Positions 3,271 to 19,784 of a stretch of 19,784 bases of DNA are shown one piece after another (position 1 is the first letter of the stretch; the number at the start of each line of letters is the position of its first letter). The notes beneath the pieces are model-generated. The model was not told where the DNA came from. It was given only the letters and a program-made list of their open reading frames with translations, and ran no database searches. This DNA is from a virus (taxonomy: Duplodnaviria > Heunggongvirae > Uroviricota > Caudoviricetes). The stretch covers positions 1 to 19,784 of the IMG/VR virus record IMGVR_UViG_2690316049_000007; one strand, 5' to 3'. A program made the translations under genes and the position numbers.

Positions 3271-3439
3271 CGTCTTCTTCCTCGTACATTGAACTATTCG
3301 GATCGCTCATCAGTTCTGCGCAGCAGTGCTCACACACGTGAACTTCCAGCACATGCAGCTTCTGACCGCAGTTAGCGCACGTTAAAGCTCGCTCGACGCT
3401 TTCTTTCTGGTATTGAAGGGATTGGGATGGGCTAAGCAT
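3242..3439 (-). CDS. ninF: NinF-like small Cys-rich protein (65 aa)
   Basis: [46 protein letters not shown]... matches lambda NinF as recalled. Overlaps the ninG start. Confidence 0.8.
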
Positions 3440-3815
3440 TATTGGCGTCCTGCATCATGAGAAAGACAATCATGGCGGCACGGAGTGGATTGTCATATGC
3501 GACACCAACATTCGGTCCGGCATCATCAAACAAGTCCCTTGCGTTGTCTGTAGCGCACGGCATTGAGGGATTGTCTAAAATTATGCTGATGTTGTTTTCA
3601 GTGATAATCGGCCATGCGTCTGCTGGGTTTGCGCATGGGTTAAAGGATCCGCGCTCAACCTCTACTTCAACTGCGTCTCCGTTTACAATGTCTCCCTCAA
3701 ATGAGATAAACACCATCGCGCCATTCTCACCTTCTTTGTAATCCGGTGATCCGTTATGAATGGCTTCGAATACCGCCACGTTAATTTCAAAATCACTTAA
3801 CTGTGAATAATCCAT
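3432..3815 (-). CDS. Hypothetical nin-region protein (about 127 aa; ORF extends to 3857 with a GTG)
   Basis: Long minus-strand ORF in gene-dense nin region. Most plausible start is ATG 3815 (MDYSQLSDF...) with GAGG 8 nt upstream. Acidic protein, no motif recognised. Confidence 0.6.
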   Translation of the reverse strand: MDYSQLSDFEINVAVFEAIHNGSPDYKEGENGAMVFISFEGDIVNGDAVEVEVERGSFNPCANPADAWPIITENNISIILDNPSMPCATDNARDLFDDAGPNVGVAYDNPLRAAMIVFLMMQDANNA

Positions 3816-3960
3816 TGTCATTTCCTCGCACGATGTCTTAGCCACCGGATATCCCACAGGTGAGCCGTGTAGTTGAAGGTTTTTACGTCAGATTCTTTTG
3901 GGATTGGCTTTGGTTTATTTCTGGAGCGTTTCGTTGGAAGGTATTTGCAGTTTTCGCAGA

Positions 3961-4135
3961 TTATGTCGGTAATACTTCGTCGCTGTCTCGCCACACGTCC
4001 TCCTTTTCCTGCGGTAGTGGTAACACCCCTGTTGGTGTTCTTTCACACCGGAGACACCATCGATTCCAGTAAGGTTGTCCTGGTCGAAAGCGATCGTCTT
4101 CCTTTCGCTCTCCACATCGATAACAGTGCTTCATG
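3961..4135 (-). CDS. Small zinc-ribbon protein at the NinE position (57 aa)
   Basis: ATG 4135-4133 overlaps the methyltransferase stop (ATGA). [32 protein letters not shown] carries two CxxC pairs. A competing overlapping frame (3915-4115) exists. Confidence 0.45.
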
Positions 4136-4721
4136 CGATCACCATTTTGCATGGTTTAATCGCCATGCCTGGAGCCAGTTCAAAATCGGAGTCGCACTGA
4201 TTTCCCCACATATCCCACCCGGTCACTTTGTCGCGGCTAAATAACTCACAGCGCGGCACGTCGCCAAGCAACTTAGCTAACATGTCTCTTACGATCGGTG
4301 GTTTTGCACTGTGCTCCATTCTCGGTGCGGTAAAGTGCTGGCATATTGAAGCGTCCATTCTCTCAGGTAACCGCCCTCGAACGGCAAACAAGCAATCCTC
4401 GCTATTTGCCCGGGTCATATGCCCCATTCCGATCGCACTGTTGCCTTTGTGCTTATTGGTTTTGTGCCAAGTAAAGCCTTTCATAGTCATCAACCTGAAT
4501 CCCCACGCCTCAATTACCTTTAGCGCTTCGGCTGGCTGTGTCGGCACCCACCACATCGCTAACAAGCAAGATTCTGGATCCGCTAAATCCCATACTGGCA
4601 GTCGGCAAATGTCCTGAACATTCATAACATCGTATTTATGTCCAGCACCGCGATTGCCATCGTTGGCTTTGTCGCGATATTGCCAAGGCGGATCTGCGTA
4701 AATAAGTTGGTATTTGTTCAT
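4131..4721 (-). CDS. DNA N6-adenine methyltransferase, MT-A70 family (DPPW motif), 196 aa
   Basis: [15 protein letters not shown]... shows the DPPW catalytic motif near the N-terminus, typical of MT-A70-like orphan phage methyltransferases. ATGA overlap with ninB stop. Confidence 0.85.
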
Positions 4722-5158
4722 TCAGTTTTATCTCCCCATCTCGCTTTCCACTCCAGAGCCAGTCGCGCTTCGTCTGACCACTTAACGCCACGCTCTGTAC
4801 CGAATGCCTGTATAAGCTCTAATAGCTCCGCAAATTCGCCTACACGCATCCTGCTGGTTGACTGGCCTATTACCACAAAGCCATTCCCGGCAAGGTTAGG
4901 AACAACATCCTGCTGCTTTAATGCTGCGGTAAACACACACTTCCAGCTTTCTGCATCCAGCCAGCGACCATGCCATTCAACCTGACGAGAGACGTCACCT
5001 AAGCAGGCCCATAGCTTCCTGTTTTGGTCTAAGCTGCGGTTGCGTTCCTGAATGGTTACTACGATTGGTTTGGTTGGGTCTGGAAGAATTTGCTGTACCG
5101 CGTGAATAGCGTTTTGCTGATGTGCTGGAGATCGAATTTCAAAGGTTAGTTTTTTCAT
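4718..5158 (-). CDS. ninB: NinB (recombination mediator, lambda orf146 homolog)
   Basis: From MKKLTFEIRSPAHQQNAIHAVQQILPDPTKPIVVTIQERNRSLDQNRKLWACLGDVS... matches lambda NinB as recalled. Start at ATG 5158 with GGAGAGGGAAG upstream; the ORF-track start at 5176 is probably too long. Confidence 0.9.
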   Translation of the reverse strand: MKKLTFEIRSPAHQQNAIHAVQQILPDPTKPIVVTIQERNRSLDQNRKLWACLGDVSRQVEWHGRWLDAESWKCVFTAALKQQDVVPNLAGNGFVVIGQSTSRMRVGEFAELLELIQAFGTERGVKWSDEARLALEWKARWGDKTE

Positions 5159-5173
5159 GACTTCCCTCTCCCC

Positions 5174-5206
5174 CAAATAAAAAGGCCTGCGATTACCAGC
5201 AGGCCT
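5174..5206 (-). terminator. Rho-independent terminator between helicase and ninB (tR2-like position)
   Basis: Minus strand AGGCCTGC-TGGTAATC-GCAGGCCT followed by TTTTTATTT: 8-bp stem. Confidence 0.5.
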
Positions 5207-5234
5207 GTTATTAGCTCAGTGATGTAGATGGTCA

Positions 5235-7700
5235 TCAGAATCCTCCTTTCTTCTTGGACTGCGGTTCCTCGCGTTCACGGCGGCGCATTTCAGCAGACTG
5301 TTGGTCTGTGTCATAAATAGCGCCATTTGCCTGAATGCAATACACCGTGCCGGTATTGCCATGACGATTGAGACGAAGGATTAGTTCGGTTTCACCAGGT
5401 GGAACACTGTCATCAAAAGCACCTTCACGATGGATCCCCACCCAATAATCGCAATCCTGTTCAATCTGCCCTGTATCTCGTGAGTCACTTGGTAATGGGC
5501 GTTTATTGGTTCGGCTTTCCAGTGCGCGGTTAAGCTGCGTCAGAAGCACAACAACGCAATCAAGCTCTTTGGCAAGGTTCTTCAGTCCTTTGGTGATCAT
5601 GCCGTAAGCAAGGTCGTTGCGATCGGCCTTCTCAGCGGTCATTAGTGTCAGGTAATCGACCAGAATCATGCCAACACATCCTTTTTCTCGCTTGATTCGA
5701 CGGCTTTCGCTGACGATTTGAGCCAGAGATAATCCCGGCGTGTCGTCGATGTAAAGCATGTCGATTTCACTCAAGCGATTAGCTGTTTCGATCGCCCTGT
5801 TGAAGTCACCATCGTAATCACCCTGATAGCCGTCATCAGCGTCATTTGTCGCCGGAAGGTAAAAAATATTCGGGTTAACACCTGACTTCTGTCCTACCAG
5901 TTTTTCCAGTATCTGGTCACCGGGCATTTCAAGGCTGAACATCAGAGCGGGCTTTTTCTCATGCACTGCGCAGTTGATTGCCATCTGGCTGTATAGCGTG
6001 GTGTTGTGGGTTAGAATGTATCCGTCAGTTGCATACAAATGTCTCTCGTGGGATACCATGATGCAAATGCACTCTTCACGTCCAATATACTCAACCGACG
6101 TGATAACAGGCGCACTTGTTTTGATGCGTTTTGCAGTGAATTTTTGCTTCAGGCGTGGAGATTTTATGTGTGATAGAACCTCATCAGGCAACCTGATTGC
6201 GCAAATATGGGCATCCATACCTTTGCGCATTTCTCCCTTATAACTGAATTTCGGCTCCTGTTTGGTTGTCATACGACACACGCCACCAAGAGAATGCACC
6301 AGCCGCTTTACACCATCTGACAGGAACTTGCTTGCCGAGCTAAAGCGCAGGGCATTATTTCCTTCAACCCAACCATCGGTTTCAAGTAATCCGCATAGAA
6401 CATCAATACGAGTTTGCTTATCAGCAGAAAAAATAATATCCGGGATAATTTTAATCTCTGACATCCGGCCGTAGATACCAAGCCGTTGCATAACCCGCGT
6501 AAGAGATAATTTGCGGCTAAACTTGTGAGATAGGGAGTAATCGCAGCCAGAAACATGCCTGACTTCAATATCGTCACCCACTTCAGATCTTACTCGCTCA
6601 ATGATGTATGGTTCCGTCATGCTGATTCGTGGCGTACCTGCAAGATTTCCATCACCAAGTAACGCACCTAACAGCCATGGGCTAATCCCTAAATCAACAG
6701 GCAATCCGAAGTCACCGCTAATACCAGGAACATGAATGCGGCTTTGATAGCGAACGCATTCCATCATGTCCCGTAGGCGGCAGGTGTCTACAACATCAAC
6801 GCCACCGGTAATACGGTTACTATGAATTTCCCACAAATGATCATCCGCGCAATCAACGGTTCTTCCGTCAGAGAACGTAACTCGGTAAATATCTCGCTCC
6901 CCTTGAGGAAAAACTCCAGACACGAATGATGGTTGTCCATCCACTGATGCTAGGGAATCTCCAACACATACGTCACGAAATGTTGTCCATGAACCATCAG
7001 CAAGCAAAATGCGTGAATTAAGCGGTTGCGCTTTCCCCATCTTAGGGCGAGCGCCAATGACAAACAGAGATCCTTTCACCAGACCTTTCGGTGACAGCAT
7101 CCTGTCCAGCGATGGGATCCCTGTGCTCATTCCTCGTTGTTCGCCTGACGGGTCAAATCGCTTCTCAAGGTCGCTAACCCAGTCTTCCATGACCTCGCCA
7201 AATGAGCGAAGGCCGCGACGCGATCCGGTTTTTGCATGGTCTGTCAGTTGCGTGAAAATCGCCTGAATAGCTTCGTACTTCTGCGTTGCAGTCATTCCGT
7301 TGCGGGAATAGAGCAATTCCGTCGCTTCAGTCATGCGGTTGATGGCGTAGCGTTCCATTGCGGTTTCACGAACCTGCATTGCATAGGCAACGATGTTTGC
7401 TGCGCTTGGCGTGTTCTTTGCGATCTCAGCGATATAAGCAAAACCGCCAACAGACGCCGTTAACGATTTGCGATCCAGTTCATCGAAAAGCGTCAGGCCA
7501 TCTACTGGCTTTTGCTCCCGGTGCATTCTGGTTATTTCTTCGAAAAGGATTTTGTGTGGTCGGCTGTAAAATGAATCAGGCTTCAGCATCGCCAGAACTT
7601 TCTGGACGCGCTCACTGCTGTCATCATCCAGAAGCAATCCACCAATCACCGCCTGCTCTGCCTCGATGCTATGGGGCGGCGCATAAAAATTATCGGTCAT
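5235..7700 (-). CDS. Replicative DNA helicase, DnaB family (P22 gene 12-like), interrupted in-frame by an intein; precursor about 821 aa
   Basis: N-terminal PPHSIEAEQAVIGGLLLD, Walker A GARPKMGK then TTLYSQ, Walker B ILVDYLTLM, and LTQLNR...DSRDTGQIEQDCD are DnaB motifs. Walker A is split by 343 extra residues. Start placed at ATG 7700 (GAGGGTG upstream); the ORF track uses GTG 7715. Confidence 0.9.
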   Translation of the reverse strand: MTDNFYAPPHSIEAEQAVIGGLLLDDDSSERVQKVLAMLKPDSFYSRPHKILFEEITRMHREQKPVDGLTLFDELDRKSLTASVGGFAYIAEIAKNTPSAANIVAYAMQVRETAMERYAINRMTEATELLYSRNGMTATQKYEAIQAIFTQLTDHAKTGSRRGLRSFGEVMEDWVSDLEKRFDPSGEQRGMSTGIPSLDRMLSPKGLVKGSLFVIGARPKMGKAQPLNSRILLADGSWTTFRDVCVGDSLASVDGQPSFVSGVFPQGERDIYRVTFSDGRTVDCADDHLWEIHSNRITGGVDVVDTCRLRDMMECVRYQSRIHVPGISGDFGLPVDLGISPWLLGALLGDGNLAGTPRISMTEPYIIERVRSEVGDDIEVRHVSGCDYSLSHKFSRKLSLTRVMQRLGIYGRMSEIKIIPDIIFSADKQTRIDVLCGLLETDGWVEGNNALRFSSASKFLSDGVKRLVHSLGGVCRMTTKQEPKFSYKGEMRKGMDAHICAIRLPDEVLSHIKSPRLKQKFTAKRIKTSAPVITSVEYIGREECICIMVSHERHLYATDGYILTHNTTLYSQMAINCAVHEKKPALMFSLEMPGDQILEKLVGQKSGVNPNIFYLPATNDADDGYQGDYDGDFNRAIETANRLSEIDMLYIDDTPGLSLAQIVSESRRIKREKGCVGMILVDYLTLMTAEKADRNDLAYGMITKGLKNLAKELDCVVVLLTQLNRALESRTNKRPLPSDSRDTGQIEQDCDYWVGIHREGAFDDSVPPGETELILRLNRHGNTGTVYCIQANGAIYDTDQQSAEMRRREREEPQSKKKGGF
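6003..7031 (-). mobile_element. Intein (343 codons) in the helicase P-loop, with LAGLIDADG homing-endonuclease domain
   Basis: Insert lies between GARPKMGK (K codon 7034-7032) and TTLYSQ (T codon 6002-6000). It ends with LTHN before +1 Thr. Two LAGLIDADG-type motifs: LLGALLGDGNL (6674-6642) and VLCGLLETDGW (6401-6369). Block B-like DDHLW and block F-like EECICIMV are present. Confidence 0.8.
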
Positions 7701-18938: not shown

Positions 18939-19784
18939 CTATATTGCTGAAGGTACAGGCGTTTCCATAACTATTTGCTCGCGTTTTTTACTCAAGAAGA
19001 AAATGCCAAATAGCAACATCAGGCAGACAATACCCGAAATTGCGAAGAAAACTGTCTGGTAGCCTGCGTGGTCAAAGAGTATCCCAGTCGGCGTTGAAAG
19101 CAGCACAATCCCAAGCGAACTGGCAATTTGAAAACCAATCAGAAAGATCGTCGACGACAGGCGCTTATCAAAATTTGCCACGCTGTATTTGAAGACGGAT
19201 ATGACACAAAGTGGAACCTCAATAGCATGTAACAGCTTCACTAATGAAATAATCCAGGGGTTAACGAACAGCGCGCAGGAAAGGATACGCAACGCCATAA
19301 TCACAACACCGATAAGTAATGCATTTTTTGGCCCTACCCGATTCACAAAGAAAGGAATAATCGCCATGCATAGCGCTTCGAGTACCACCTGGAATGAGTT
19401 GAGATAACCATACAGGCGCGTTCCTACATCGTGTGATTCGAATAAACCTGCATAAAAGACAGGAAAAAGTTGTTGATCAAAAATGTTATAGAAAGACCAC
19501 GTCCCCACAATAAATATGACGAAAACCCAGAAGTTTCGATCCTTGAAAACTGCGATAAAATCCTCTTTTTTTACCCCTCCCGCATCCGCCGCTACGCACT
19601 GGTGATCCTTATCTTTAAAACACATGTTGATCATCATAAATACAGCGCCAAATAGCGAGACCAACCAGAAGTTGATATGGGGACTGATACTAAAAAATAT
19701 GCCGGCAAAGAACGCGCCAATAGCATAGCCAAAAGATCCCCAGGCGCGCGCTGTTCCATATTCGAAATGAAAATTTCGCGCCAT
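18939..19784 (-). CDS. LacY-family (oligosaccharide:H+ symporter) MFS permease, C-terminal 281 codons; 5' end lies beyond the window
   Basis: Hydrophobic multi-helix protein with FNIFDQQLFPVFY and GPKNALLIG segments paralleling LacY (YDVFDQQFANFF, GGKNALLLAG) as recalled, but divergent. ORF runs to the window edge. Confidence 0.85.
   Translation of the reverse strand: MARNFHFEYGTARAWGSFGYAIGAFFAGIFFSISPHINFWLVSLFGAVFMMINMCFKDKDHQCVAADAGGVKKEDFIAVFKDRNFWVFVIFIVGTWSFYNIFDQQLFPVFYAGLFESHDVGTRLYGYLNSFQVVLEALCMAIIPFFVNRVGPKNALLIGVVIMALRILSCALFVNPWIISLVKLLHAIEVPLCVISVFKYSVANFDKRLSSTIFLIGFQIASSLGIVLLSTPTGILFDHAGYQTVFFAISGIVCLMLLFGIFFLSKKREQIVMETPVPSAI

Follow-up and report, generated by a model that had tools for sequence, protein, structure and literature searches.

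A solitary MT-A70 family methyltransferase gene in the ninC position of a lambdoid prophage, with GATC methylation as its likely activity

What is the function of an adenine methyltransferase gene that stands without a restriction partner in the nin region of a lambdoid prophage? This question was raised by a gene on the minus strand of a stretch of viral DNA of 19,784 nucleotides, the whole of which was analyzed and is called the window below. The window represents the early region of an Escherichia coli prophage of the lambdoid type, with a mosaic structure. Its genes were found in the order holin, Q, NinI-type phosphatase, NinH, NinG, NinX, NinE, NinD, methyltransferase, and NinB, followed by an intein-containing DnaB-type helicase with an adjoining 296-aa ORF, which occupies the replication-initiator position and has no Pfam match, and then by cII and a CI-type repressor gene (9416–10066). 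Further on, there are a weak N-like ORF, a protein resembling P22 gp17 (superinfection exclusion gene product 17), a Rad52-type recombinase, SSB, an exonuclease, Ead, and a DUF551 protein, and the gene at 18939–19784 is probably the one annotated as “oligosaccharide MFS transporter” in matching E. coli genomes. The best genome match in the collection covered at most 64% of the window, and the surrounding prophage modules were mosaic.

The initial annotation had placed an MT-A70-type adenine methyltransferase with a DPPW motif at 4131–4721, and these borders were exact: the minus-strand ORF runs from an ATG start to a TGA stop and encodes 196 aa. Overlapping plus-strand ORFs (e.g., 4228–4617) were rejected as spurious shadows of this conserved gene. 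The Pfam family MT-A70 (PF05063) matched residues 4–175 over the full length of the profile (positions 1–172 of 172) with 90 bits against a cutoff of 23.9 bits (E = 2.2e-25). Matches were also found to PHROG 359, “DNA methyltransferase” (E = 4e-107), and to the PADLOC family MTase_II (E = 2.5e-70), and no NCBIfam model matched the protein. As similarities between sequences, these family matches far exceed chance. Among proteins of known structure, the sequence matched Tetrahymena MTA1 (E = 6e-11) and METTL3 (E = 1e-6), and a profile of 106 sequences matched MTA1 (1e-34), METTL3 (1.5e-27), METTL14 (4e-14), and the Arabidopsis METTL4-type “Methyltransferase-like protein 2” (1.5e-19). When AlphaFold was given 27 close homologues, a model with a pLDDT of 48 was obtained and discarded; the alignment of 106 diverse homologues yielded a usable AF2 model (pLDDT 93.9, pTM 0.89). 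With this model, Foldseek retrieved SAM-bound METTL3 (E = 1.3e-14, TM 0.75) and MTA1 (E = 1.4e-13). The assignment to the MT-A70 type was thus borne out by the full-length profile match, the DPPW motif, and the METTL3/MTA1 fold.

Catalytic motif IV, DPPW, occupies residues 10–13, and its codons lie at 4683–4694 on the minus strand. Considering that missing catalytic residues would have spoken against the assignment, they were looked for in alignments of 29 close and 106 diverse homologues, and they were present and conserved in both. D10, P11, and W13 were invariant among the 29 close homologues; among the 106 diverse homologues, reaching down to 38% identity, D10 was invariant and P11 and W13 were at least 90% conserved. 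In addition, D10 was aligned with D209 of MTA1, the residue changed in the PDB entry “MTA1c (D209A).” A second block, H-S-x-K-P, was found at residues 137–141 in the C-terminal half of the protein (4299–4313, minus strand) and was aligned with an “s-q-K-P” block of MTA1. S138, K140, and P141 were invariant in the close-homologue alignments, and across the 106 homologues K140 was invariant and H137, S138, and P141 were at least 90% conserved. Since DPPW stands at the extreme N-terminus and conserved blocks such as H137-S-x-K-P141 follow it toward the C-terminus, the motifs are arranged in the class-beta order, which has been described for methyltransferases (PMC7544214). Moreover, the catalytic motif and about 60 further positions were invariant in the close homologues, which argues for purifying selection rather than decay. 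Taken together, the sequence and the predicted structure make it nearly certain that the product is a minimal, single-domain, SAM-dependent N6-adenine methyltransferase of the MT-A70 clade with class-beta motif order.

The enzyme shares its catalytic fold and DPPW motif with METTL3–METTL14, which methylates RNA to m6A, and with the Tetrahymena MTA1 complex, which methylates DNA to 6mA. The eukaryotic MT-A70 enzymes, however, are heterodimers with a degenerate paralogue and carry extra nucleic-acid-binding parts (PMC7544214), whereas the window contains no paralogue of the methyltransferase, and the protein of 196 aa consists of little more than the catalytic core, with no obvious target-recognition domain. 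By analogy with the class-beta precedent (PMC7544214), it may work as a homodimer.

The gene lies between two well-known members of the nin region. Upstream is the gene of the recombination mediator NinB/Orf (4718–5158, minus strand; Pfam NinB, E = 2e-54). The initial annotation had set the methyltransferase between ninB and an ORF in the ninE position; the first half of this placement was correct, but the gene directly downstream is ninD (3961–4134, minus strand; 57 aa; Pfam NinD, E = 7e-39 over positions 1–57 of 57), with ninE one gene further (3818–3994, minus strand; Pfam NinE, E = 2e-45). The ATGA overlaps that had been reported on both sides were also recovered. At 4718–4721 the TGA of ninB shares bases with the ATG of the methyltransferase gene, and at 4131–4134 the TGA of the methyltransferase gene overlaps the ATG of ninD (4134–4132), provided that ninD starts at Met7 of its 63-aa ORF, the start used by PGAP in a genome that carries a 100% identical methyltransferase gene. 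A mechanical ORF list shows NinD in its 63-aa form (3961–4152, minus strand), which would share 22 nt with the methyltransferase gene; the start at 4134, with a product of 57 aa, is the one that fits both the Pfam NinD profile and the PGAP annotation. NinE and NinX are likewise joined by ATGA (3818–3821, minus strand) if NinX begins at Met13 of the 141-aa ORF at 3432–3857, matching the general nin-region pattern. The genes of nin regions are as a rule joined by ATGA (PMC8022706), and a direct comparison revealed identical 4-nt overlaps between lambda ninB, ninC, and ninD. Consequently, the coupling is uninformative about the methyltransferase itself.

The comparison with lambda was more informative about how the gene is placed. 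Nucleotide identity with lambda was 93% in the ninE/ninD segment (3821–4136) and 98% in the ninB segment (4718–5236), but homology was absent between 4136 and 4718, which are exactly the borders of the methyltransferase gene. In lambda, this slot is occupied by ninC, which is joined to ninB and ninD by ATGA in the same way, and NinC is a PAPS-reductase-like protein of a family unrelated to MT-A70. Because homology breaks at the gene ends and the slot lies between ninB and ninD, the methyltransferase gene has replaced lambda ninC gene for gene. Its solitary status, which had been claimed from the neighboring genes, also held over a wider range. The flanking genes are ninB and ninD; there is no adjacent gene for a cognate endonuclease such as a Type II restriction-modification system would have; and searches of the other ORFs of the window with Pfam and PADLOC found no restriction endonuclease, nor was there any nuclease partner in 24.6 kb of an annotated prophage of E. 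coli strain 10 (NZ_CP146507.1). The strain-10 prophage carries a 100% identical gene in the arrangement “recombination protein NinB,” methyltransferase, “protein NinD,” again with 4-nt overlaps.

When would such a gene be expressed? The interval between the helicase gene and ninB contains a hairpin resembling an intrinsic terminator (5183–5206, minus strand), with an 8-bp stem that includes 6 GC pairs and is followed by a T-run, TTTTTATTT; by its position, we infer that it corresponds to lambda tR2. A candidate pR-like sigma-70 promoter (9366–9393, minus strand; TTGACT-16-GATAAT, 10 of 12 consensus matches) adjoins the CI-type repressor gene and faces the cII/replication/nin operon. Both the promoter and the terminator were called as consensus matches alone, and judged from these signals the methyltransferase gene probably belongs to a repressor-controlled, delayed-early pR operon. 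It would then be transcribed together with ninB and ninD from pR and past the tR2-like terminator, and its delayed-early expression would need N antitermination and would be repressed in the lysogen, with translation possibly coupled to that of ninB and ninD through the ATGA overlaps. Since the gene lies downstream of the tR2-like terminator and probably in an operon under repressor control, a lysogen probably does not express it.

The distribution of the protein was then considered. An identical protein, WP_021560741.1, is present in RefSeq under the name “MT-A70 family methyltransferase,” and in the P22-like or lambdoid E. coli prophages that encode it, the gene itself is no different and the surrounding modules are mosaic. 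Copies with at least 95% nucleotide identity were found in 38 of 5426 complete E. coli genomes. A protein search returned 1085 homologues at E ≤ 1e-5; the 90% cluster of the methyltransferase has 228 member sequences, and the wider family comprises 12,524 clusters at 50% identity (E ≤ 1e-3). Relatives with at least 66% identity came almost entirely from Enterobacterales. The closest phage homologue in the collection was the “6N-adenine methylase” of Erwinia phage vB_EhrS_59 (82.5% identical), and the product of Salmonella phage epsilon15 (NP_848237; 78% identical) was also among the closest. Phage HP1 “Dam” (orf13), which was tried as a relative, had no similarity by BLASTP (E = 9.7).

These relatives occupy two kinds of position. 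In a species-representative collection, the gene stood in the nin region directly after a NinB or NinB-like gene in 4 of 40 loci, an arrangement seen in a Pantoea cypripedii prophage, where the overlap between ninB and the methyltransferase gene is the same as in the window, and in Erwinia phage 59, where the gene directly follows a NinB-like gene as it does here. In about 11 of the 40, it was placed early-left by the integrase and was preceded by PerC-like or DUF1317 genes (epsilon15, Salmonella, O157 typing phage 9); in epsilon15, unlike in the window, the gene is near the integrase and downstream of a PerC-like activator gene. Because close relatives occupy two genomic positions, the methyltransferase gene behaves as mobile cargo. 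In the Erwinia phage (locus 2042–4932), the gene lies after a DUF1367/NinB-like gene, and a separate gene for a Dcm-type cytosine methyltransferase was observed about 0.8 kb downstream in the same nin region, which places two solitary methyltransferases in one operon.

The initial annotation had suggested, in generic terms, that such orphan enzymes can shield phage DNA from host restriction or change host methylation. As to what the enzyme methylates, our preferred reading is that it is specific for the adenine of GATC in DNA and brings the Dam-type methylation of replicating phage DNA to completion, and by analogy with assayed relatives we consider this somewhat better supported than its opposite. 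Several solitary MT-A70 enzymes have been connected with GATC. When p32 of Serratia phage BZS1 was studied in a dam- host, the DNA became resistant to MboI and sensitive to DpnI, as expected of a GATC-specific enzyme (PMC7556043). This p32 is reported to be 75% identical to the HK639 enzyme (PMC7556043), and HK639 gp35 was in turn 45% identical to the window enzyme (E = 2e-55), a value too low for a certain transfer of specificity. Like the window gene, the p32 and gp35 genes are phage-borne, solitary, and of the MT-A70 type; gp35, however, has about 25 additional residues inserted midway along the protein, and its gene belongs to the early-left region, where the BZS1 paper places it downstream of integrase (PMC7556043). 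The Stx2a-phage enzyme (M.EcoPA8orf6770P / M.EcoGV type) was closer, with 64% identity over residues 2–187. It has been called “highly similar” to M.EcoGV (PMC10810198), for which methylation of GATC upon overproduction is mentioned (PMC10810198; PMC6602927), and M.EfaBMDam of Tn1549 is described as GATC-specific in a citation within PMC7556043. The window enzyme is thus homologous to MT-A70 members with experimental GATC specificity, and all of its assayed relatives are at most 64% identical to it. Moreover, virion DNA of lambda and P22 is under-methylated by host Dam (PMC8022706), which gives a phage-borne Dam mimic a rationale.

If so, the enzyme would methylate the adenine of GATC in DNA and duplicate the activity of host Dam. 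The benefit would be full methylation of fast-replicating phage DNA that host Dam leaves under-methylated, and the GATC-reading systems affected might include MboI/DpnII-type restriction, MutH, and SeqA. There are also results that speak against GATC. The purified Stx2a-phage enzyme alone was near background on dam- DNA in vitro (PMC10810198), the in vivo GATC results came from over-expression, which can relax specificity (PMC10810198), and the bare catalytic core has no obvious target-recognition domain to read GATC. As a whole, the explanation that this is an orphan Dam mimic which replaced ninC, is expressed delayed-early, and is repressed in the lysogen seems to us moderately probable. It bears on how methylomes of lysogens would be read. 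A dam+ lysogen should show no new motif, since the GATC motif of the relatives is already written by host Dam, and the lack of one would not count against activity, given that GATC is already fully Dam-methylated there and the gene is probably silent. The whole window contains 60 GATC sites against 89.6 ± 8.5 expected from shuffles, an under-representation. Within the 591-bp gene there are 5 sites (4137, 4293, 4431, 4577, and 4691), one of which falls in the DPPW codons (GAT-CCG). Both the scarcity in the window and the sites within the gene may be due to chance and point to nothing specific.

Could the enzyme methylate DNA with another specificity? A DNA adenine methyltransferase that recognizes a motif other than GATC, or that is relaxed or nonspecific and gives phage DNA a broader protection against restriction, is the strongest of the alternatives, though we regard it as unlikely. 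The protein has no separate recognition domain, and specificity can shift at 45–64% identity. In the same Serratia work, a different prophage methyltransferase proved to be very relaxed in its specificity (PMC7556043), and the nonspecific prophage adenine methyltransferases M.EcoGI/II are known in E. coli (PMC6602927). These relaxed enzymes, however, have not been shown to be of the MT-A70 type, and in three papers (PMC10810198, PMC6602927, PMC7556043) the bacterial and phage enzymes of the MT-A70 type with a reported DNA motif are all GATC-specific.

A different proposal is that the substrate is RNA rather than DNA. According to Gong et al., the Stx2a-phage enzyme binds the product of its upstream gene, PNB-2, in a 1:1 complex (PMC10810198). 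By analogy with M.EcoPA8orf6770P-PNB-2, the window enzyme would be a 16S rRNA m6A methyltransferase that tunes translation and prophage induction. In its favor, the Stx2a-phage enzyme is the sole close relative that has been biochemically dissected; with PNB-2, it preferred 16S rRNA in 30S subunits, and in vitro it had hardly any activity on DNA (PMC10810198). With its partner, it has been reported as a holoenzyme that methylates 16S rRNA (PMC10810198). It has the DPPW core and the prophage-borne orphan state in common with the window enzyme, and METTL3, an RNA writer, is among the closest proteins of known structure. The RNA preference, however, is conferred by PNB-2 (PMC10810198), and the PNB-2 gene, which was located in a Stx2a phage by means of a published terminator sequence, had no credible match in the 19.8-kb window by tblastn at E ≤ 10; a PNB-2 homologue was also absent from 40 related loci of other species. 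Directly upstream of the window gene, where the partner gene of the holoenzyme would be expected, is ninB. Furthermore, the Stx2a-phage enzyme has 208 aa, against 196 aa in the window, and a distinct C-terminal tail. The last ~27 aa of the STEC-type protein, proposed to be necessary for the complex, are missing here; the two proteins can be aligned up to about residue 187 of the window enzyme, and beyond it their tails are unrelated. Variants of the enzyme that lack the C-terminal tail occur without PNB-2 (PMC10810198). The position differs as well, for the Stx2a-phage gene lies in the early-left region beside the integrase with the PNB-2 gene before it, whereas the window gene is in the nin region. 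With both PNB-2 and the STEC-type tail missing, the rRNA model does not transfer directly, and we consider it improbable for the window enzyme.

The Stx2a-type phages themselves differ directly upstream of the MT-A70 gene. In phage phi345 there is a 76-aa ORF (2768–2998 of the locus), and in Stx2_KIH15-140 there is PNB-2 of roughly 143 aa (1967–2398); the two products are alike in their last residues alone (..YIDEFENAL). The 76-aa ORF of phi345 was not found in the window. Because these upstream genes differ, the PNB-2 partnership is not universal even among Stx phages.

There is a further scenario in which the nin-region form, instead of mimicking Dam, writes m6A on RNA with a partner other than PNB-2, or methylates single-stranded DNA together with the ssDNA-binding NinB/Orf, and we think it quite improbable. 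It draws on the adjacency to NinB or NinB-like genes, which recurs in Escherichia and Pantoea prophages and in an Erwinia phage, and, if it were true, recombination or replication intermediates would be marked during lytic growth. The adjacency is nevertheless best explained by the position of both genes at the head of the nin region, and no functional link between NinB/Orf proteins and methyltransferases was found in PMC4118853 and PMC2034487. Least of all do we favor the modification half of a restriction-modification system with a distant endonuclease, or an inactive remnant, both very improbable: PADLOC labels the family “Type II methyltransferase” and the window holds only part of the prophage, but no restriction endonuclease was found in the window or in the 24.6 kb of the strain-10 prophage, the relatives are flanked by nin genes or the integrase and not by nucleases, and the invariant positions in close homologues argue against decay.

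Returning to the preferred reading of a GATC-specific DNA methyltransferase, the gene taken singly is of little importance. The methyltransferase is already known: the RefSeq entry for the identical protein bears the family name, relatives have been cloned and assayed, and the gene, which is already annotated, belongs to a very large family of solitary adenine methyltransferases carried by phages and prophages. The point in dispute concerns the clade rather than this locus, namely whether the minimal MT-A70 enzymes methylate DNA at GATC in vivo or act on RNA, as has been claimed for the Stx2a-phage homologue. The nin-region allele, which has no PNB-2 partner, would be a clean test case for this DNA-versus-RNA dispute.

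Finally, an unrelated feature was observed in the neighboring helicase gene. The ORF of the DnaB-type replicative helicase (5235–7715, minus strand; 826 aa) contains a 343-aa intein (about 6003–7031) that splits the P-loop between GARPKMGK and TTLYSQ and carries a LAGLIDADG homing-endonuclease domain. The helicase of the strain-10 prophage has 458 aa and is without the intein. Intein DNA of at least 99% identity was present in only 17 of 5426 complete E. coli genomes, and among the matches listed (5 of the 17), no annotated feature lay beneath it. The intein begins with Ala, not Cys or Ser, and ends with T-H-N ahead of a +1 Thr, and we take it to resemble the class-3 (WCT) inteins of phage DnaB helicases.
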